DNA from: Candidatus Poribacteria bacterium
GTDB taxonomy: Bacteria > Poribacteria > WGA-4E > PCPOR2b
Assembly: GCA_965208675.1 (NCBI GenBank)
Contig: OZ242351.1
Span: forward strand, 3,656,387 to 3,720,386
DNA length: 64,000 nucleotides
Direction: 5' to 3'
The notes below the pieces were generated by a model that had not been told where the DNA came from, searched no databases, and saw only the letters and a list, made by a program, of their open reading frames with translations. Both the position numbers and the translations under genes were made by a program. Shown one piece after another: positions 1,296-46,262 of the stretch. How positions within the stretch are numbered: the first letter of the stretch is position 1; each line of letters opens with the position of its first letter.

Positions 1296-3080
1296 TTAAT
1301 GGACGAAATGTCGTCTTCGGTTTGATAGTTCAACAAGTTCCTTAAGCGTCTCAATGTTATCATCACCCTTCGTCAGGGCGGTGGAACGTCTTTCACGCTC
1401 TATATCGCGCAATAGAAATTCACTGAGTTTTTTCAAACACCCTTCAACCCGCACTTTAAGATTTGGCGTAATCTTCCTTTGCAGGAGGGCATTCGAGATA
1501 GTGCCTTTAATTCTCTCATTCTCACAAGTGTCAATCAGGCCTTGCACGTCAAGTGGGTCGTCAGACTTGCACCCGTCCCATAGCATTTGCGCAATAATTG
1601 CAAAATCGGGGTGTGTAAAATCTTGATAGCGAAATTTCTCTTTTACACCTCGAATAAGATTCGGACTCTGAATTAGGGATTCAATCAACTGCCATTCGAT
1701 TGACTCGCGCGGCTTGAGGCTTGCCTTTCCGGCATATTGGGAGGGGGGACGCACCTGGGAAGAACGGTTTGCTTTCACACCGAGACGCTGCAATTCCTTC
1801 GATAGCACTTCACGTTCAATATTGAGTTCTTGCGCGGCATATGTAATATATTCATTTAGTTCAACATTGCTTGTAATATGAGACAAGGTTAATGCAATCT
1901 CTTTAACTGTATGAGTTTTCACATCAATTCGGCGGATTGCATCTTGTTGAGAAGCGCGTTGAATCTGAAATTCGATGAGATTCATCGCAGAGTTGCAGAG
2001 TTGATTAAACGCGTCCAAACCTTGTGATTGAATAAATTGATCTGGATCTTCACCAGTCGGCAGAAGCGCAATGCGAACACGCAGCCCTTTCTTCAGAAGA
2101 ATGTGCAACCCTCGAAGCGTCGCTTGGAAACCCGCGGCATCGCCATCATAAACGATAACCGTCTCTTCAGCAAATCGATTCAATAAACTGGCGTGTGATT
2201 CGCTAAATGCCGTTCCTAATGAGGCAACAACATGTTTCACACCTACCTGATAGGGCATGATCGCATCAAAATAGCCCTCGACCAGAATGGCTTTCCCTGC
2301 CTTCTGAATTGCTTGCCGTGCATGGTATAGATTATAGAGCGTTTTGCTTTTATCATAAAGACCTGTTGTAGGCGAATTCAGATACTTGGGAAGCGTTTCT
2401 TCAGATAACGCGCGCCCGCCGAATCCAACAGGTATCCCGCGTTCATCAAGAATTGGAAATATGATTCGACCTCGAAAGCGGTCTATGGACCCGTGTTCAT
2501 CCTTCTTGATGAGCCCGGCATCAATTAACTGTTGCACCGAAAAATCGGCTTTTGCCGCAGTTTTGAAAAGATCTTGGCGTCCACGGGTGGCATACCCGAG
2601 TTGGAAATGGCGGATGGTTTCATCTTTTACACCGCGCTTTTTGAGATATGCCAACGCGTGGCCGCCGATTTGAGGCGTCAAGAGTTGTCGATGAAAATGC
2701 GCCATGGCAAAACGGTTGACATCCTGAAGTTCAAGACGTTTACGACTTTTCTCACGCGATTTCCCGTCCTGACTCGGCAATGAAATTCCAACACGTTGCG
2801 CTAACCACGCTACGGCTTCTATGAAAGGCATACCTTCATGTTTCTGAAGGAAGCTAATCACATTGCCGCCGCTATTGCAACCGAAACAGTAGAAGATTTG
2901 CTTCTCGGGAGATACGCTGAAGGAGGGCTTTTGCTCTTCGTGGAAGGGACAGAGCGCACTGAATTCCTTACCGGCGGCACGCAACGGAATTCCACACTCA
3001 GATATCACCTCCGCAATATCGTTTTGTGCTCGAATTTCGTTCAGTAGTTCCGGTGGAATGTAATTCGACGATTGATTCAT
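1296..3080 (-). CDS. dnaG: DNA primase DnaG
   Basis: 594 aa. N-terminal zinc ribbon CPFHEEQKPSFSVSPEKQIFYCFGCNSGGNVISF. TOPRIM region IVYDGDAAG and EGYFD. Sits directly upstream of rpoD on the same strand, the classical dnaG-rpoD arrangement. Confidence 0.9.
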   Translation of the reverse strand: MNQSSNYIPPELLNEIRAQNDIAEVISECGIPLRAAGKEFSALCPFHEEQKPSFSVSPEKQIFYCFGCNSGGNVISFLQKHEGMPFIEAVAWLAQRVGISLPSQDGKSREKSRKRLELQDVNRFAMAHFHRQLLTPQIGGHALAYLKKRGVKDETIRHFQLGYATRGRQDLFKTAAKADFSVQQLIDAGLIKKDEHGSIDRFRGRIIFPILDERGIPVGFGGRALSEETLPKYLNSPTTGLYDKSKTLYNLYHARQAIQKAGKAILVEGYFDAIMPYQVGVKHVVASLGTAFSESHASLLNRFAEETVIVYDGDAAGFQATLRGLHILLKKGLRVRIALLPTGEDPDQFIQSQGLDAFNQLCNSAMNLIEFQIQRASQQDAIRRIDVKTHTVKEIALTLSHITSNVELNEYITYAAQELNIEREVLSKELQRLGVKANRSSQVRPPSQYAGKASLKPRESIEWQLIESLIQSPNLIRGVKEKFRYQDFTHPDFAIIAQMLWDGCKSDDPLDVQGLIDTCENERIKGTISNALLQRKITPNLKVRVEGCLKKLSEFLLRDIERERRSTALTKGDDNIETLKELVELSNRRRHFVH

Positions 3081-6779: not shown

Positions 6780-6851
6780 AGCGGGTGACGGGAATTGAAC
6801 CCGCGGCCCTCAGCTTGGGAAGCTGACGCTCTACCGCTGAGCTACACCCGC
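6780..6851 (-). tRNA. tRNA-Gly (anticodon CCC)
   Basis: Reverse complement is GCGGGTG-TA-GCTC-AGCGGTA-GAGC-G-TCAGC-TTCCCAA-GCTGA-GGGCC-GCGGG-TTCAATT-CCCGT-CACCCGC-T. Acceptor stem is a perfect 7 bp, D stem 4 bp, anticodon stem 5 bp, and the T stem has one G-U pair. Anticodon loop TT-CCC-AA. No encoded CCA. Confidence 0.85.
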
Positions 6852-7214: not shown

Positions 7215-8639
7215 ATGAGCATACGGTCACGGGGCGCAGTTTTGCTAATCTCCTGTTACGAACTTGGACACGAACCTCACGGTATCAGTCTGCCGCTTGG
7301 ATTTTTGGAAAATGCCGGATTTGCACCCGATTCAATGGACATAGCGGTCGAGGCGTTCGACACAGAAAAAATTGAACGGGCTAGATTCATAGGAATCTCG
7401 GTACCGATGCACACCGCTTTGCGGCTGGGTGTCCATGTCGTGCGGCGCATTCGCGAAATCAATCCGCAAGCAATTATCTGCCTCTACGGCTTGTACGCTG
7501 TGCTAAACGCAGAGTACCTCCTAGAACACGGCGTGGACTTCTGTATAGGGGGCGAGTTTGAAGCACCTCTCACGGAGCTCGTCGAAGCATTCGATTCGCA
7601 GCCACAAGACTCCCCACGCCGCCCAACGCGCAACGTTCCGATAGAGGGTGTTATTCAGCGCGGCGCGAAACCGCGGCCTTTCCTTCGACGGTTGCCTTTC
7701 GCTGTCCCAAGCAGGAACACACTGCCGCCTCTTGAAAAGTACGCCCACTTGGAGCACAACGGCGAGCACCGCGTAACCGGTTACGTCGAGGCAAGCCGGG
7801 GGTGCGTACATCTCTGCACGCATTGTCCGATTCCGCCGGTGTACGGTGGACGGTTTTTTGTAATTCCGCGGGAAATTTTACTTGAAGACATACGAAGACA
7901 GGTGAACGCCGGTGCAACGCATATCACGTTTGGGGATCCCGACTTCCTAAACGGACCAACGCACTCGTTGCGTATCATCCGTGCGATGCATGAGGAATTC
8001 CCACACCTCACTTTCGACTTCACTGCTAAAATCGAGCATATCCTAGAACACCGAAAGGTTTTCCCCGAACTCGCAGCGTCAGGCTGCTTGTTTATGATTT
8101 CCGCGGTTGAGTCGCTAAGTGATACTGTCCTAGAGGTATTGAGTAAGGGCCACAAGCACGAGGACATCGTTGAGGCGTTAAAGATTGTACAAAACGCTGG
8201 CATCGCACTTCGTCCTACCTGGGTCATGTTCACACCGTGGACTACCATAGACGATTACACCAACGTGTTGGAATTTCTCGATACACACAACCTTATTGAC
8301 CACGTAGACCCGGTACAATACGCGATTCGACTGCTGATTCCGCCCGGATCCATTCTGCTTGAGTGCCCTGCCGTGAAGCCTTATCTTGGATCGCTAAACC
8401 AAGCATCTTTTAGCTATGAATGGCGTCACCCCGATCCCCGTATGGATGAACTCCATAAAACCGTCAGTACGTTGGTAGAACGGGATTCCCAAGCAGGCGA
8501 GGACGAAATGAGTATTTTTTACAGGGTGTGGGCGCTTGCGGCAAAAATGCGGGGTGAGTCACTTCCCGAGTCTGTACACCGTAGTCGCCGCGCTAATCGA
8601 ATCCAAGTGCCGCGAATAACCGAGCCATGGTTCTGCTGA
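7215..8639 (+). CDS. B12-binding-domain radical SAM protein (class B rSAM)
   Basis: 474 aa. N-terminal Rossmann-like B12-binding-type region (AVLLISCYELGHE...). CxxxCxxC cluster in GYVEASRGCVHLCTHCPIPPVYG. No C-terminal Cys-rich SPASM domain. AGGAAG RBS sits before the ATG. Confidence 0.72.
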   Translation: MSIRSRGAVLLISCYELGHEPHGISLPLGFLENAGFAPDSMDIAVEAFDTEKIERARFIGISVPMHTALRLGVHVVRRIREINPQAIICLYGLYAVLNAEYLLEHGVDFCIGGEFEAPLTELVEAFDSQPQDSPRRPTRNVPIEGVIQRGAKPRPFLRRLPFAVPSRNTLPPLEKYAHLEHNGEHRVTGYVEASRGCVHLCTHCPIPPVYGGRFFVIPREILLEDIRRQVNAGATHITFGDPDFLNGPTHSLRIIRAMHEEFPHLTFDFTAKIEHILEHRKVFPELAASGCLFMISAVESLSDTVLEVLSKGHKHEDIVEALKIVQNAGIALRPTWVMFTPWTTIDDYTNVLEFLDTHNLIDHVDPVQYAIRLLIPPGSILLECPAVKPYLGSLNQASFSYEWRHPDPRMDELHKTVSTLVERDSQAGEDEMSIFYRVWALAAKMRGESLPESVHRSRRANRIQVPRITEPWFC

Positions 8640-15386: not shown

Positions 15387-15705
15387 TTCAAGAATTACGT
15401 TCCGTCAGAATTGTGTCCGCAAGTGTTGACCATTATGGCACAATTGGCAGTATTGTGTCAAACAGTATTCCCCACCCACTGGCATACGTAACAAACGCTT
15501 TCGTCTTCTATCTCGCCTCGATTTCCCACTCAACAAATTTCCCGCTGAATTTTTCTTCCAGTCTGTGAACTTTTCATTTCCTTGCGGTGTCATTTAGAAT
15601 GGAAGCTTACCGGATGACCTATCGCCCCGCCTTTCGCCGGTAATTTTGATAAGCAATATCAAAGTGTCCTGAACCTAAGTCGGTACTTTCTTAAGCTGAT
15701 GAGCA

Positions 15706-16320
15706 TTGATATTACAATCCGATGAATTTCTCATTGATAAGATTCTTGAACGCGATGCGGAGGCGTTTGAAGTGCTTTGGGCACGATATAGCGCGTCCGT
15801 CCGCCGACACATCATACGCACCGTACAGGACGAAAGTGCAGCCGAGGATTTGGTTCAGGAAGCATTCTTGCGTCTATGGACATCCGCTGAGCAGTGGGAT
15901 GGGCGAGGCAACTTCAAGGGGTGGTTCTTCCGTATCGCCACAAACCTCGCCCTCAATCACCTGCGCGCCCTGCGTCGGCAGAAGCAACAGCCCCTCGAAA
16001 TACCGCTGGACGATTTTGATGATACGGACGACTACTCGTCCGACCCGGATTGGATGATTGACACATCGTTACGCAGTCCCGATGTGATGCTAGAACAAGC
16101 CGAGCAGTCTAATCTGCTCTGGCGGCTGGTTGAAGAACTGCCCGAAGATAAACGAGAAGTGCTTCACCTTGTATATCGGAAAGAGATGAATCTTCGTGAC
16201 GTTGCCGCTGAGATTGGCATCCCGGAAGGCACGGTGAAGTCGCGTTTACACTATTCCATAAAGCGTCTCGCTCAAGCATGGAAGGAGATTACAGGCGAAT
16301 ACGAGGAAGATAGTCAGTGA
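15706..16320 (+). CDS. ECF-type RNA polymerase sigma factor (sigma-70 family, regions 2 and 4)
   Basis: 204 aa. Region 2 reads DAEAFEVLWARYSASVRRHI...AEDLVQEAFLRLW. Region 4 reads REVLHLVYRKEMNLRDVAAEIGIPEGTVKSRLHYSIKRL. TTG start at 15706 and TGA stop at 16318-16320. Confidence 0.85.
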   Translation: MILQSDEFLIDKILERDAEAFEVLWARYSASVRRHIIRTVQDESAAEDLVQEAFLRLWTSAEQWDGRGNFKGWFFRIATNLALNHLRALRRQKQQPLEIPLDDFDDTDDYSSDPDWMIDTSLRSPDVMLEQAEQSNLLWRLVEELPEDKREVLHLVYRKEMNLRDVAAEIGIPEGTVKSRLHYSIKRLAQAWKEITGEYEEDSQ

Positions 16321-16380
16321 ACAAGCGAGGCTATTACTCGCCACGCATTACGCATTCCGTATTACACATCACGATTCACG

Positions 16381-16408
16381 CTACACACTACACACTACAC
16401 ACTACACG
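16381..16408 (+). repeat. Heptanucleotide tandem repeat (CTACACA)x3 plus CTACACG in the sigma/mini-RNAP intergenic spacer
   Basis: Read directly from sequence: ctacaca ctacaca ctacaca ctacacg. Confidence 0.8.
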
Positions 16409-16420
16409 AAATTCCCAATG

Positions 16421-16430
16421 GGAGGAGGAG
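16421..16430 (+). promoter_or_regulatory. Strong Shine-Dalgarno (GGAGGAGGAG) 6 nt before ATG 16437
   Basis: ggaggaggag accgca ATG. This supports 16437, not the GTG at 16317 used by the ORF track, as the real start of the downstream CDS. Confidence 0.6.
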
Positions 16431-16436
16431 ACCGCA

Positions 16437-19400
16437 ATGTCACACAACATCACCGCATTATGGCACAAAAAATCTTTTGACCAACTGATGAACAATCGGC
16501 TGCCAGACCTACTCGCCGAGCGATTGCCGATAGCTGGCTACCATTTTGAACCTACCAGCACCTACACCGGTTGTATCAAAATCTCCCTCACGTCAACTGA
16601 TGGCGACGTTGAAGTCGAATACACCGATATCCCGCAACCGGACAAGGAAGGGATGTTCAAAATTGACGGAGAAAACTATGTTGTCGTTCCAACGGCTTCG
16701 ACTGATAACCTGAAAAAAGCGAAAATCAGATGTATTGGAGAGCAACTATATAGTTATATCAAAATGCGCTTGAAAGGTGCCACCTTAGACCTGTCATGGG
16801 AAACAGCCCCTGTACGATCATGGCTCCCGCTTGATAAATGGATACAGGAATTCTTTCGTGACACATTTTACTCGCAGAAACTTCAGGAGACCAACTGGCT
16901 CGACAAGTATAGGCATCTTCGACGGTTATACGTTCTGAACCGCGAGCAGGTATTCACGCCCTCCCACTTCGGGCGGGCATGCCCTTTCGAGACGCCAGAG
17001 GGGCCAAACATAGGTCGAATCCTTACGATTGCTAGGGGCGCCGAGATTCGCGGCGGAAAACTGGTCGTCGTTGATGAAAACCCCGAAGCAAACCTCGGCT
17101 TAGCATCGGCAATGATCCCATTTCTTGAACACAACGATCCTGCCCAGACAATGATGGGGGCTAACATGTTGTGTCAGTGGATGGCGCCTTCGTCTCCGGA
17201 GACAGCTCCACTACGCCAAGCCAAAGAGATACCGAGGTTGGCTGCTGCTCCGGAGCCCGCACTTGTCCAAACTGGTTTAGAACCGGATGTGCCCGACTTT
17301 TGGTGCGGTCGCAACCTATTGACCGCTTTCATTTCTTGGGGCGGCGATACCTTCGAAGACGGCATCGTGATAAGCCGGTCGTGCGCAGCGCGTCTAAAAT
17401 TTCCTTATGCAGTTGAACCCGGCGATAAGATTGGCAACCGTCATGGAACGAAAGGCGTCGTTTCGCGCATCCTGCCTGACGATGAGATGCCGCACCTTGC
17501 CGACGGTACACCGGTGGAACTTGTATTCAGTTTCGGTGGCTTGCACGCGCTAATGAACCTCGGTCAATTACGAGAGGCGGTGATGGGGCGTATTGCACGA
17601 CTGGAAAATAAGCCAGCTATCGTGCCGCCATTCCGCGCTCCCTGTGCGGATGAATTGCGCGAACGCCTTAAGAACGCAGGACTTCCGGAAGATGGAATGG
17701 AACGCCTTACATTTGGGAGGAACGGTAATAAGGTGGGGCGGCATAGCACAGTCGGTTGGGTGTATTGGGGACGTCTGGCTCATATTGCGTTAGATAAAAT
17801 AAAAGCCTCCGACTCAACCGATATTGAAGACCATAGGTACTTCCAAACACTTGGTGAACTTGAATACGATAGACTACGCAACGCCTCAGTACTTGAAACA
17901 TTGAGGGAACATTTTAACACCCGCGCCATGAATCGGACTGATGCGCATACGTTAGCGGAGCGCGTCGCAATAGGCGAAGTTGAGCAGGCGGGTCCGCCGA
18001 CGCCGATGTTCGCTAACCTCACGAATCGACTCTCGGCAGCAGGAATTTGGGCCGAACTCTACGGCGGCAAGTTGATTTTTAAATTTGGGCGACCGAATGG
18101 AAATACGCTCAAGCTTGCTCAGCCCGTCCCTTATCCGTGGTGCCGCGATCGAATCCTTGATGAAGTCGGGGTCCGTGAAGGCATGCCTGAATATCAGTCG
18201 CTTGCCGATGTCAACGCCAGGGCTGACCGTATGCTTGCGAGTAATGCACCGGAAAGTTTAACCCGCCAAACCATCGTGCAGCTCCAAACCCGCGTCGCGG
18301 ATTATGTCAATGCGCTCCTAAGCCCAACCGTCATGAACTTTAAGTCACGGAGCCTCTTCAGCGGACGCGCTGTCATAGCACCGGGTGCAGAGTTACACGC
18401 TGATCAGGTCGGTATTCCGGAGGAGATGGCGTGGGCACTCTTTGGACATCATGTTACAAATCGGCTCGGTGATGCCGAAGAAGTACGGCGGCGTAGTCAA
18501 GGTGCAACACAAATCCTGGATGAATTGATGGCGGGTTCGTGGGTAATTGTGCTTCGTCCACCGGCGCATACACTCACTAACCTCGTTGCGTTCCATCCGG
18601 TGCGGCACCCCGACCGTGTCATCCGCGTGCATCCATTCGTGTGCGAGTTTATGAACGCCAATTTTGACGGCGATCAAGCAGCAGTCTTTCTCCCAATCAC
18701 TGAAACCGGACAACGCGAAGCCGGTGAACGGCTTTCCATCGCCGGGCATCTGAAACACGACCCAAGTTTATCCAAATTGCTGGCACCGACGCATGACGCG
18801 ATGTGGGGATTGGCACATTTAAGCCTCACCCCGGAAGGGCGCGGCGAAATCGCAGAGATTGTCGGAACCAACATCCCCGCCCCAGACGGTCTGGTTAGAC
18901 AAGATTCGCTGGCAAAGTCACTAGAAGCCATCCTCAAATGCGATGGAATAGACCGCACGATTGAAATAGCCGAGCGTCTAATGCGGCGCGGGCTCGCAAT
19001 TACTAAGGAATCGGGTGCCTCCATGAGCCCATTTATCAGTAGACCCGCTGGCAGCCCATCCGTTCCGGTAGATCCCGATGATGCACCCGCTTGGAACGCT
19101 CACGCAGAGGAACTTATCGAGTGGCTTGCCGCGTGTAACGACTTCGCGGACAACAACTTGGGACCGCACATCCTTGCGGCAAAAAGCCAAGACGCACGCA
19201 GTAGACTTTATCGAATCGCTTGCTGTGTCGGGGCAAGAGGTACGGTTTTGGACCTTCGAGGAAGAGATATCATCGTTCGCAACGGGTATAGCGACGGTTT
19301 AACACCCGGTGAACTTTACCCGCTTTCCGTCACTTCGCGGGAGGAGATTGTGCGGCTCAATTTGGAACGGCAACGGATAGAATTGGAATTGCGCAACGAC

Positions 19401-19556
19401 AGTGAGCCAGCAGGATTCACCGTCCTGGTGCGTGCAATGCGTGCCAAACACCCAGGTGTCGTTTTCGCCCGAGCCGCTGCAACCGGTGAGGTCGATCCGC
19501 TTACTGATGTGGACAGCCGTCTTTTCGTCGGGCTACCTGTATCAACTGAGGAGTGA
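16437..19556 (+). CDS. Single-chain fused beta/beta' (RpoB-core plus RpoC-core) minimal RNA polymerase-like protein
   Basis: 1039 aa. It carries the RpoB blocks in order: [108 protein letters not shown] and [17 protein letters not shown]. These are followed by the RpoC blocks: [56 protein letters not shown] and [22 protein letters not shown]. The flap, lineage insertions and trigger-loop region are missing. The ORF-track version (16317) is extended upstream through a repeat-containing spacer. Confidence 0.8.
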   Translation: [1039 protein letters not shown]

Positions 19557-44492: not shown

Positions 44493-46262
44493 TTATTGTT
44501 CCCTTAAACCCATACCTTCCGTAGCGGTTAGGAATCGATTTCCCCGGACATTTTCAAATCGCTCTACAAACCCACTGGGCCAGCGAATCTCTACCAAATC
44601 TGCCATATCGGACTGGCCAAGCCCAAAGTGTAATCGCATATCGCTATGCGAAGGGTAACTGCCCCCGCTTTTAACTTCTCTGATTTGTGAATTACCGCCC
44701 ACCACGACCTTTATCCGGGTCCCAATTCCATCGCGGTTACTTTGCACACCAACTGTTGTAAATGAAAGCCAGTGGTTCAGATGAGCGCTGTCATTTCGCA
44801 GGAGATTAGGCGGCTGATGACAATTAGTGACTAAAACATCAATATCTCCATCATTATCATAGTCGCCAAAAGCTGCGCCGCGACTCACCTTCTTCAAAAG
44901 CAACCCTTCGCCGGATTGATTGGATACATCCTCAAATGTAATATTGCCCGTGTTCCTGAAAAGTTGGTTTTGCTGGGCATAGGTGAGGTTAGGATTGATT
45001 AGATGAATGTTATCGTTCAAGTCTCCCGTGGCGATAAAGAGATCTACCAATCCGTCGTTATCAAAGTCTGCGAAATCTGCTCCCCAAGATAGCCGCATGA
45101 GTGTTTGGGCACCGATTCCAGAACGATATGTGATATCTGCAAACAGCCCATTCCGATCGCTGCGGTAGACGGCGTTAGGTTCACCGCTGAAATTCGTAAC
45201 GACGAGATCGAACCACCCGTCGTTGTCGATATCGCCAAATACCGGCGCCATGCTGCTATATGCGCTACCGGTTTCATCGACCGCAACCCCGCTAAATAAG
45301 GCGACTTCAGTGAACACGCCATTGCCCTGATTCCTATAAAGCCAGTCGGCTTCTAAGTCGTTTGCCACAAACAAATCGAGGTCATGGTCGTTATCGTAGT
45401 CGCACCAGACAATTCCCATTCCTTTACCGTTTGGGTTAAACACACCGGCTTGGCGGGTTACGTCCGTGAATGTACCGTCGCCATTGTTTTGGTAAAGTAC
45501 ACTCGGCGTCCCCTCAAAGTTTTTAGGCGAACAATATGTTCGCACGTTAAACTCACCGCACTGGGGATTGTCCTCCAGTTCAAACGCAACATAATTCGCG
45601 ACATACAGGTCCAGGTCACTATCATTATCATAATCGGCAAAAGCAGCAGAAGCTCCCCACAGGGTGTCACCCACTCCTGCCTGAACTGTTACATCAGTGA
45701 AGGTGCCATCACGGTTGTTGTGATAGAGTACGTTTGGGCCAAAATTAGCGACATAAAGATCTGGAAAGCCGTCATTGTCGAAATCTCCCACGGCGCAACT
45801 GAAACCATAACTGCCATCGCCCACTCCTGCCTGAACTGTTACATCTGAGAAGGTGCCATCGCCATTATTGCGATAAAGTGCGTTTGTTGGCGGCACAACG
45901 GAGTGCATGCCTGGTAGGTCTGCCCCGTTCACGAAATAGATGTCTATATCTCCATCCCGATCATAATCGAACCATGCCGCACCAGCTCCAATGGGCTCGA
46001 GATAATACTTCGCGCCGCTGCGTCCATCTTCATGCTTAAATTGAACGCCGGCTTCAGATGTGACCTCGCTAAATTTTAGTTCGGCCCGCGTTGGCAGAAC
46101 GGAACACCGAAAGAGCAGAACGCAAATCAAAAAATGTACCGCGGTTTGTAGTATGTACCGCGTAGCAGTTAAAGCAGCGCACGGATGATTTTGTTTCTTC
46201 TCCCTCTGTTCCTTGTGTACACAATTCACAACTGTAACGAATCCTTCCCTTCGTTTCGACAT
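44493..46262 (-). CDS. CRTAC1-family protein (FG-GAP/VCBS repeats plus ASPIC/UnbV C-terminal domain)
   Basis: 589 aa. Signal/TM at N-terminus. Repeated ...DYDNDGDxDLYVAN...GDGTFTDVT... calcium-binding propeller units. C-terminal VEIRWPSGFVERFENVRGNRFLTATEG, the UnbV/ASPIC motif. Confidence 0.75.
   Translation of the reverse strand: MSKRREGFVTVVNCVHKEQREKKQNHPCAALTATRYILQTAVHFLICVLLFRCSVLPTRAELKFSEVTSEAGVQFKHEDGRSGAKYYLEPIGAGAAWFDYDRDGDIDIYFVNGADLPGMHSVVPPTNALYRNNGDGTFSDVTVQAGVGDGSYGFSCAVGDFDNDGFPDLYVANFGPNVLYHNNRDGTFTDVTVQAGVGDTLWGASAAFADYDNDSDLDLYVANYVAFELEDNPQCGEFNVRTYCSPKNFEGTPSVLYQNNGDGTFTDVTRQAGVFNPNGKGMGIVWCDYDNDHDLDLFVANDLEADWLYRNQGNGVFTEVALFSGVAVDETGSAYSSMAPVFGDIDNDGWFDLVVTNFSGEPNAVYRSDRNGLFADITYRSGIGAQTLMRLSWGADFADFDNDGLVDLFIATGDLNDNIHLINPNLTYAQQNQLFRNTGNITFEDVSNQSGEGLLLKKVSRGAAFGDYDNDGDIDVLVTNCHQPPNLLRNDSAHLNHWLSFTTVGVQSNRDGIGTRIKVVVGGNSQIREVKSGGSYPSHSDMRLHFGLGQSDMADLVEIRWPSGFVERFENVRGNRFLTATEGMGLREQ

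Follow-up and report, generated by a model that had tools for sequence, protein, structure and literature searches.

A single-chain mini beta-beta' RNA polymerase homologue paired with an extracytoplasmic function sigma factor in Candidatus Poribacteria

Non-canonical enzymes with two double-psi barrels were surveyed in 2010 and comprise Orf6 of the killer plasmids, insect-virus and phage enzymes, and YonO-like proteins (PMC2919709). Orf6 (K2ORF6p) of the yeast killer plasmid pGKL2 has about 980 amino acids (aa) and is a fusion of a reduced beta-like part and then a beta'-like part. It contains both barrels and the bridge helix, without trigger loop, lid or rudder (PMC2919709, PMC6211774). Sykora et al. 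(2018) called this beta-beta' fusion unknown in any other RNA polymerase (RNAP) (PMC6211774). YonO of the SPbeta prophage is an efficient and processive DNA-dependent RNAP, which matches the efficiency of multisubunit enzymes without trigger-loop homology (PMC5467207). The locus described here lies in a stretch of 64,000 nucleotides (nt) of a Candidatus Poribacteria bacterium, contig OZ242351.1; the whole stretch is called the window, and coordinates are positions in it. It consists of two genes on the plus strand, a sigma factor gene of the extracytoplasmic function (ECF) type at 15706-16320 and a gene at 16437-19556 for a single-chain mini beta-beta' protein.

The window protein belongs to a discrete family of bacterial proteins in which the catalytic cores of beta and beta' are joined in one chain, and an orthologous ECF sigma gene precedes the polymerase gene in every assessable locus. 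What is new is that the pairing with sigma is obligatory and that the setting is a bacterial chromosome; non-canonical two-barrel RNAPs as such are already known. The preferred reading, which is held to be likely by a modest measure, is that of a two-gene operon whose family would be a sigma-directed, DNA-dependent mini RNAP, with the window lineage as a catalytically impaired derivative.

Architecture and extent of the family

The frame of the polymerase gene is open from a GTG at 16317. The ATG at 16437 is taken as the true start because all homologues begin MS.N..A.WHK. Pfam domains follow each other in the order Rpb2 domain 3 (aa 148-204), Rpb2 domain 6 (best at aa 326-458, E 2e-37) and Rpb1 domain 2 (aa 691-763, E 1.5e-15). 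The NCBIfam scores are far under the cut-offs, with 166 against 801 bits for rpoB (TIGR02013) and 76 against 963 bits for rpoC (TIGR02386). The closest sequence matches among solved structures are bacterial beta and beta', and archaeal subunits match more weakly. A family profile was aligned to Salmonella RpoB and RpoC, whose numbering is that of E. coli, and the retained segments are strictly colinear with RpoB and then RpoC. An AlphaFold model from a 113-sequence alignment has one compact and confident fold (predicted local distance difference test, pLDDT, 91.3; predicted template modelling score, pTM, 0.89) and was used instead of a mediocre run on 25 sequences (pLDDT 71). The protein has both the beta-type and the beta'-type barrel, which is the architecture of the two-barrel RNAP superfamily, and its homology to these enzymes is beyond doubt. 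The gene and its retained segments are as follows.

16437 to 19556, plus strand: single-chain mini beta-beta' gene, 1039 aa and stop (Pfam, NCBIfam and PDB sequence matches, model)
16437 to 16856, plus strand: N-terminal domain, aa 1-140, with a remnant of the beta protrusion (beta 119-147; sub-profile E 4e-4, pLDDT about 90)
16857 to 17051, plus strand: beta fork and Rif pocket, aa 141-205 (beta 484-580; Pfam and family profile)
17115 to 17177, plus strand: beta E block, aa 227-247 (within beta 655-708), with the Gln237 and Cys246 substitutions
17184 to 17261, plus strand: insert, aa 250-275 (about 25 residues), separating the beta E block from the F block (alignment and model)
17352 to 17363, plus strand: FEDG, aa 306-309, equivalent of beta E813/D814 (region F, beta 786-824; profile alignment)
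17412 to 18056, plus strand: beta double-psi barrel and beta C-terminus, aa 326-540 (beta 1055-1342, up to the final residue of beta)
18057 to 18176, plus strand: remnant of the beta' N-terminal beta-sheet, aa 541-580 (weak colinear match to beta' 77-131, E 0.037)
18186 to 18317, plus strand: beta' clamp helices (coiled coil), aa 584-627 (beta' 267-309; profile E 8.6e-7)
18345 to 18836, plus strand: beta' double-psi barrel, aa 637-800 (beta' about 345-513), with R707-P-P709 as R425/P427 and the magnesium motif
18654 to 18674, plus strand: magnesium-binding motif NANFDGD, aa 740-746, with Asn742 at the beta' D460 equivalent
18837 to 19400, plus strand: funnel/region F and bridge helix, aa 801-988 (beta' 589-796; profile and model)
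19305 to 19400, plus strand: bridge helix, aa 957-988, 32 residues (model)
19422 to 19553, plus strand: C-terminal segment, aa 996-1039, like beta' region H (1325-1354; weak colinear match, E 0.021)

In the beta part, most Poribacteria-type sequences and one other (P0077) have the insert that separates the E block from the F block, and aa 258-263 within it are the only stretch of the model with pLDDT below 50. The flap is deleted after FEDG, where about 18 residues lead to PGDK, and GDK331..RHGTK339 in the barrel contains the equivalents of K1065 and K1073. The beta' N-terminal remnant holds an 11-residue stretch resembling HIELASPTAHIWF and is modelled as strands at 537-578, with no zinc finger. 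The clamp hairpin (584-601 and 606-627) is modelled at pLDDT above 90. The funnel and switch 2 have been put forward as marks of the DNA-dependent two-barrel enzymes. Before the beta' barrel, the segment R.LFSGRAVI aligns with an 11-residue part of switch 2, and the remainder of switch 2 falls in an alignment gap. The C-terminal segment is highly conserved within the family. Absent from beta are the lobes and the flap (about 825-1054), and absent from beta' are the zinc finger, lid region, rudder, trigger loop, sequence insertion 3 (SI3) and jaw; the trigger loop/SI3/jaw stretch (beta' about 800-1320, roughly 520 residues in E. coli) is shrunk to about 10-20 residues. The clamp coiled coil is the one element retained outside the catalytic and nucleic-acid-handling core. 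The mini polymerase derives from bacterial beta and beta' through near-complete deletion outside the catalytic core, followed by head-to-tail fusion.

A preliminary description of this DNA had reported an ECF sigma gene followed by a 1039-aa mini beta-beta' reading frame, with RpoB blocks and then RpoC blocks, fused barrels, no flap and apparently no trigger loop or jaw. The reading frames are as claimed, and the homologue N-termini support the ATG at 16437. All quoted motifs are present, the blocks are colinear in Pfam and in the family profile, and the alignment to Salmonella RpoB and RpoC agrees on the missing parts. The segment that had been called bridge-helix-like is the pre-bridge segment, and the bridge helix itself is aa 957-988.

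A word-indexed search yields more than 120 full-length homologues of 1000-1060 aa with 50-94% identity. In an exhaustive search of representatives, about 75 full-length clusters at 50% identity score above 800 bits. Below the family comes a sharp drop: the next matches, full-length canonical beta-beta' fusions, score no more than 416 bits. Residues were scored in an alignment of 185 full-length members, and the family has at least this size. Homologues occur in independent NCBI, ENA, JGI and Logan assemblies, including contigs of 4.7-9.7 Mb, and the named sources are Candidatus Poribacteria, Hydrogenedentes, Chloroflexota and Ktedonobacteraceae. Few members carry a name: nearly all are entered as "hypothetical protein", and one JGI entry is a list of the three Pfam domains. 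The hypothetical protein MDE0184486.1 belongs to an 89%-identity cluster, and the window's clade is that of Poribacteria.

The family is real and discrete, and is neither a chimera nor a lone pseudogene. An artefact, either a misassembled rpoB/rpoC chimera or a decayed remnant of canonical rpoBC, has nothing in its favour beyond the unusual architecture, and its probability is negligible. The same 1000-1060-aa architecture is found in more than 185 full-length proteins from four independent assembly sources, which speaks against the misassembly that the preliminary description had named as a danger. The deletion boundaries are precise and common to the family, the model is single, compact and confident, and the gene is under purifying selection.

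Family members were not found in phage, plasmid, IMG/VR or BFVD viral-structure sets, in which only canonical and giant-virus subunits matched, and a phage or plasmid origin is unsupported. In PHROGs only generic beta and beta' families matched the polymerase, and the PADLOC defence library has no match to the polymerase and one marginal, irrelevant match to the sigma factor. A genome-contig scan with generic patterns such as MPHLxDGTP returned only canonical rpoBC loci (L001-L080). The preliminary description could not place the protein in a described family, and no description of the family was found in the full-text literature searched; a passing earlier mention is possible. The 2021 inventory of the Aravind group has nothing resembling a sigma-paired mini polymerase family, and the main text of a large ECF reclassification does not mention an RNAP-like sigma partner.

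The sigma factor, its pairing and the promoter

The remaining features of the locus are as follows.

15566 to 15591, plus strand: predicted ECF-type promoter, TGAAC-N15-GGTGTC, upstream of the sigma gene
15592 to 15705, plus strand: 5' leader (about 115 nt), peculiar to the window's clade
15706 to 16320, plus strand: ECF sigma gene, 204 aa, TTG start (Pfam Sigma70_r2, Sigma70_r4, r4_2 and Sigma70_ECF)
16321 to 16436, plus strand: sigma-to-polymerase spacer of 116 nt, with two heptanucleotide microsatellites and a strong ribosome-binding site

The sigma factor is of the ECF type, with sigma-70 regions 2 and 4 alone, a length of about 200 aa and an ECF profile match. In NCBIfam it matches the generic ECF superfamily TIGR02937 (117 bits, cut-off 42.9) and no named ECF group. 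The two regions are bridged by an acidic linker in which a P-x-W-(M/L)-(I/V)-D motif is conserved. DLxQExFLR, the canonical motif of region 2.2, is retained, and the family consensus has a near-invariant LGIPEGTVKSRL in region 4. The window sigma starts at a weak TTG with no obvious ribosome-binding site.

Pairing was assessed from both sides. The polymerase-side loci (L081-L086, L088-L091, L140 and L141) were reached by exact-protein look-ups and one metagenome scan, and the sigma-side loci by three sigma homologues on large contigs that are absent from the polymerase match list. In all, 16 of 16 assessable loci have an orthologous ECF sigma gene directly upstream of the polymerase gene and on its strand; in the reverse test, whose loci are among these, the mini polymerase gene follows the sigma gene in 3 of 3. 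The gap between the genes ranges from -4 (a 4-bp overlap) to 153 nt. Pairwise identities of the sigma factors correlate with those of the polymerases (r = 0.88 over 66 pairs); the sigma identity tiers parallel the polymerase tiers, and 16 sigma matches and polymerase matches are on contigs of identical size. Neighbouring genes are unrelated outside close relatives, with none conserved across clades, and no third conserved gene was found in the 16 loci. The dedicated sigma pairing that had been proposed at the outset is borne out by these counts, by the correlation and by the conserved promoter. The polymerase had been placed "immediately 3'" of the sigma gene; it is adjacent, with 116 nt between the sigma stop and the polymerase start.

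The 16 loci include L086 (Chloroflexi-type), where the sigma gene at 7388-8001 is split over two frames, one for region 2 and one for region 4, next to an intact polymerase gene. This is either a frameshift mutation or a sequencing error. Transposases and insertion sequence (IS) elements flank the pair in L082 (4987-6287 and 11423-15641), L083 (15370-17474), L084 (1272-1994) and L138 (2389-3541), and PIN toxin-antitoxin genes also flank it in L082. There are hints that the sigma-polymerase module moves horizontally between genomes.

TGAAC-N15-GGTGTC, with its AAC-containing -35 element, has a layout which we take to be that of an ECF-type promoter. The exact motif occurs once in the whole 64-kb window, at 15566-15591, and once in each of 8 other family loci, every time before the sigma gene; across 125 unrelated loci there is one match in total. 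The motif is also found in L140 and L141, and variants occur in L086 and L090. Since this conserved promoter stands before sigma in the family loci, the operon is very likely autoregulated by its own sigma factor. Two one-mismatch matches at 45682 and 45832 (TGAAC-N15-GGTGCC) were rejected as a regulon, because they are antisense copies of a coding repeat. The gene there, at 44493-46262 on the minus strand, encodes a 589-aa FG-GAP/VCBS-type repeat protein, and its repeats are chance look-alikes of the promoter.

In other clades the promoter is about 25-45 nt from the sigma ATG, whereas in the window clade it is about 115 nt from the weak TTG. A structured regulatory leader was rejected, because the predicted fold of the clade-specific leader is no better than that of shuffled sequence (z = -0.05), and Rfam has no match within the operon. 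A 14-codon mini-ORF (MEAYRMTYRPAFRR) at 15598-15650 directly follows the promoter and overlaps the inverted repeat TTACCGG...CCGGTAA. It stands where other clades begin sigma, and could be what is left of the ancestral start region, or else an upstream reading frame. The spacer contains the strong ribosome-binding site GGGAGGAGGAG at 16419-16429, before the polymerase ATG, and just upstream of it the microsatellites (ACGCATT) x 4.4 and (CACACTA) x 4.4, at 16343-16373 and 16377-16407. Shifts in their copy number could change the coupling or expression of sigma and polymerase.

Elsewhere in the window, the preliminary description had reported a normal rpoD at 1-1223. The gene is real (regions 1.2 and 2 by Pfam, with dnaG adjacent); it is on the minus strand at 3-1223 and is truncated by the window edge. 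The DnaG primase gene at 1296-3080 (minus strand) lies directly upstream and points the same way, as in the classic dnaG-rpoD layout. A tRNA gene at 6780-6851 (minus strand) is the sole Rfam match in the window at the gathering threshold.

Catalytic residues, selection and proposed function

The universal catalytic set of two-barrel enzymes has eight residues, which are the three Asp of DxDxD, beta D814, K1065 and K1073, and beta' R425 and P427 (Ruprich-Robert and Thuriaux 2010; PMC2919709). All eight are in the family consensus and are kept together by 136 of 185 members. All 13 scored residues for catalysis and nucleoside triphosphate (NTP) binding are kept in 106 of the 185, with exactly one deviation in 48 and two or more in 31. 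The fork, the beta E, F and H blocks, the funnel and the bridge helix are likewise conserved within the family.

The window protein has seven of the eight universal residues and fails the catalytic signature at the first Asp, which is Asn742. The preliminary description quoted this block, which is present, and left unremarked that it reads NANFDGD instead of NADFDGD. At the beta' D460 equivalent, 172 of the 185 members have D, 11 have N and 2 have G. The Asn is common to all nine members of the window clade (80% identity or more) and occurs in two members of another clade. Three further conserved positions are changed in the window copy.

aa 237: equivalent of beta R678; Gln in the window, Arg in 165 of 185 family members
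aa 372 (17550-17552): equivalent of beta R1106; Leu in the window, Arg in 179 of 185
aa 246: Arg of GANMxRQ; Cys in the window, Arg in 179 of 185

The window copy has 4 of the 13 sites changed; only two of the 185 members exceed this, and another two equal it. Where the triad is defective, a member has a mean of 1.7 further active-site changes, compared with 0.54 for the remaining members, a pattern that is expected once catalysis is lost. Single triad substitutions reportedly cut all catalytic activities of E. coli RNAP by orders of magnitude (Sosunov et al. 2005). In the same enzyme D460 ligates both magnesium ions, and R678 and R1106 hold the gamma-phosphate of the NTP (PMC13198411). Asn742, together with the loss of both gamma-phosphate arginines and of one more conserved Arg, probably leaves the window protein catalytically dead or severely impaired.

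The Rif pocket (aa 146-165, 16872-16931) also differs from that of the cellular enzyme. The S531 equivalent is R, L, Y, V or I in the family (Tyr165 in the window), and none of the listed members has Ser there. The D516 equivalent is often Q or S, while H526 and R529 are kept. The family enzymes may therefore be naturally insensitive to rifamycins. These positions, with S531 and D516 foremost, fit a very unlikely alternative in which the protein is a catalytic module that works with host parts: it would assemble with alpha2 and omega, swap with host beta/beta', or serve as a rifamycin-insensitive back-up when antibiotics or phage factors block the main enzyme. The beta regions H and I and the beta' C-terminal block are retained, and in cellular RNAP these lie near the contacts of alpha and omega. 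No alpha or omega gene is linked to the pair, however, the defence-system library gave no match to the polymerase, and the insensitivity itself is deduced from resistance positions.

Selection was estimated from the ratio of nonsynonymous to synonymous substitution rates (dN/dS) in six pairwise comparisons of four genes with the D-to-N change (window, L081, L140 and L141; dS up to 0.57).

Whole polymerase gene: dN/dS 0.20-0.27
Beta core: dN/dS 0.13-0.22
Beta' barrel: dN/dS 0.11-0.23
Clamp helices: dN/dS 0.29-0.60
Neighbouring short-chain dehydrogenase/reductase (SDR) gene: dN/dS 0.05-0.13

The polymerase of the window clade is under purifying selection after the D-to-N change. Its two barrels are the most constrained parts and the clamp helices the fastest to evolve. 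Across the four members the locus keeps its synteny and the promoter is conserved, and the window copy mismatches 7 of 147 family-conserved positions (family median 3, maximum 27). The polymerase has thus been kept functional in some sense long after the change.

In the window's subclade some relatives have lost an intact gene. Disrupted copies inside megabase contigs occur in an 84%-identity cluster (P0004), and the poribacterial relatives concerned are P0273, P0275, P0276, P0279, P0282 and P0284. A recurrent frameshift near aa 657, after ...ELRADQ, yields pieces of 696 and 342 aa, the latter in three assemblies. Two further copies of the cluster are without N-termini, and at least three independent disruptions are present in all, so the gene is dispensable in some relatives. 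The pseudogene remnant that the preliminary description had considered is mostly not what is found; frameshifted relatives do exist, in this one subclade only.

These losses fit the view that the pair is a dispensable, horizontally spread accessory or selfish module decaying here, so that the window copy would have no current function and its reading frame would be historical. The module is patchy across phyla, has no conserved neighbours and is flanked by IS elements or transposases at several loci. The four active-site losses, the frameshifted sigma of L086 and the weak TTG of the window sigma, with no obvious ribosome-binding site, agree with decay. The dN/dS of the whole gene and of the barrels is not that of neutral drift, however, synteny and promoter are conserved in the four clade members, and the window copy is no outlier in its conserved-position mismatches. 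Decay of this kind is considered quite unlikely.

The reading as a sigma-directed mini RNAP starts from the conserved catalytic centre and nucleic-acid-handling core of the family and from the retained clamp coiled coil. In cellular RNAP the clamp helices are the main docking site of sigma region 2. Region 2 of the paired sigma would dock on the same helices of the mini polymerase, and the holoenzyme would act on promoters of the TGAAC/GGTGTC type, among them the operon's own. A two-barrel, two-metal centre without a trigger loop would make the RNA, as in YonO; the absence of this loop is no obstacle, because YonO works without one. If the host core also uses this sigma, the bootstrapping of an operon with a sigma-dependent promoter alone would be solved.

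The window lineage would represent a derived state, in which the first magnesium-ligand Asp became Asn in the whole clade. Its protein would be kept for a non-catalytic role of the same fold, binding sigma, promoter DNA or both, and may act as a core mimic or brake on its own sigma. Active-site erosion together with continued constraint on the barrels suggests such a pseudo-polymerase. The preliminary description had offered two hypotheses, a minimal transcription machine recruited by the cognate sigma and a catalytically crippled core mimic that sequesters it. As far as sequence can tell, the family would fit the former, and the erosion in the window lineage would fit the latter as a crippled derivative.

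Several observations weigh against this reading. Deviations at universal catalytic residues in 49 of 185 members fit a family-wide non-catalytic role or frequent decay, and P0153 and P0190 are full-length without the entire Asp triad. The disrupted copies of the P0004 cluster and the frameshifted partner sigma of L086 belong here as well. Asn can still ligate magnesium weakly, so that residual activity of the window protein is possible. The main difficulty is the deleted flap, whose tip helix positions sigma region 4 in cellular RNAP. To read the -35 element, the enzyme would need some other means of placing region 4; or else the host core also uses this sigma, and the canonical -35/-10 spacing could be a sign of that. 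The clamp-helix residues R275, E295 and A302, which we take to be the contacts of sigma-70, are not conserved in the family. No second copy of the promoter was found in the flanks of the window locus or of the family loci, and the only target seen is the operon itself.

Some of these points agree with a rather unlikely alternative for the whole family, in which the protein would be an anti-sigma factor by core mimicry. It would not transcribe but would sequester sigma through its clamp helices, and the host core would read TGAAC-N15-GGTGTC. The layout is that of sigma/anti-sigma modules (autoregulated promoter, sigma, partner), and no gene for an anti-sigma domain is nearby. The clamp helices are kept while the flap is deleted, and the promoter spacing is canonical for a host core holoenzyme. 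The 49 deviating members, with full-length triad-less proteins among them, and the purifying selection in the D-to-N clade are also consistent with a decoy. A decoy needs only a sigma-binding surface, yet the barrels, fork, NTP-binding residues and bridge helix are the most conserved parts and the clamp helices evolve fastest. That 106 of 185 members keep all 13 residues is hard to explain without selection for catalysis, and a protein of 115 kDa is a costly anti-sigma factor.

The mini RNAP reading is preferred. In a stronger form, the family would be the first sigma-dependent single-polypeptide RNAP of cellular (beta/beta') ancestry, a complete two-gene system of ECF sigma and 115-kDa core working in parallel with the host enzyme in several bacterial phyla, and the window lineage a retained pseudo-polymerase that regulates its own sigma. 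This form is put forward tentatively, with its chances rated somewhat below even.

If active, the family would be the smallest known RNAP with recognisable bacterial beta/beta' sequence that still uses a sigma factor. Promoter-specific transcription could then do without the jaw, the trigger loop, the lid and rudder, the zinc finger, the flap and the lobes, and perhaps without alpha and omega as well, and the way in which sigma works without a flap would become directly testable. Such an enzyme would be a natural intermediate for the build-up or reduction of multisubunit polymerases (the cellular enzyme has 400 kDa). Synthetic biology would gain a compact orthogonal transcription module that is programmed by sigma and may be insensitive to rifamycins. 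Repeated catalytic loss under purifying selection would be a rare case of an RNAP turned pseudoenzyme and would offer a test of anti-sigma action by core mimicry.

Comparison with known systems

Orf6: The closest architectural analogue, compared by description only, is Orf6, which is likewise a reduced beta-then-beta' fusion of about 1000 aa. Orf6 is eukaryotic and borne on a linear cytoplasmic plasmid, has a proposed viral or eukaryotic ancestry, requires ORF7p as a second subunit (small and beta'-like), and uses an upstream conserved sequence (UCS) promoter and no sigma factor. In contrast, the window family is bacterial, chromosomal, derived from bacterial beta/beta' and paired with an ECF sigma, with no gene for a second subunit in the 16 loci. 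These differences argue against membership in the Orf6/ORF7p type.

YonO and QDE-1: YonO, QDE-1, crAss gp66 and P23-45 gp96 are single chains of about 100 kDa, and the window protein resembles them in its two double-psi barrels and in the lack of a trigger loop. YonO has few catalytic residues in common with multisubunit RNAPs, whereas the window family has long blocks at 30-45% identity. The YonO and QDE-1 types are phage or RNA interference enzymes without sigma, and the window family falls outside them. The YonO/QDE-1 kind of architecture named in the preliminary description therefore holds for the single-chain, two-barrel plan and not for membership, and Orf6 is closer.

Canonical RpoB and RpoC: Ancestry, catalytic blocks, clamp helices and bridge helix are common to the window family and the canonical subunits. 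About 1,700 residues are gone from the window family in comparison, and the curated cut-offs are not reached. The canonical beta-beta' fusions of Helicobacter and Wolbachia (NCBIfam PRK14844 and PRK09603 match) are natural but full-length.

ECF operons: The operons of ECF sigma and anti-sigma factors likewise have an autoregulated promoter with an AAC-containing -35 element, the sigma gene first and a co-transcribed partner second. Unlike in these operons, the partner in the window is an RNAP homologue, with only RNAP domains in Pfam at E up to 1.

Jumbo-phage RNAPs: The enzymes of phiKZ and AR9 comprise four or five polypeptides, are phage-encoded and have a specificity subunit that is not a standard ECF sigma, whereas the window family pairs a single chain with an ECF sigma on a bacterial chromosome.

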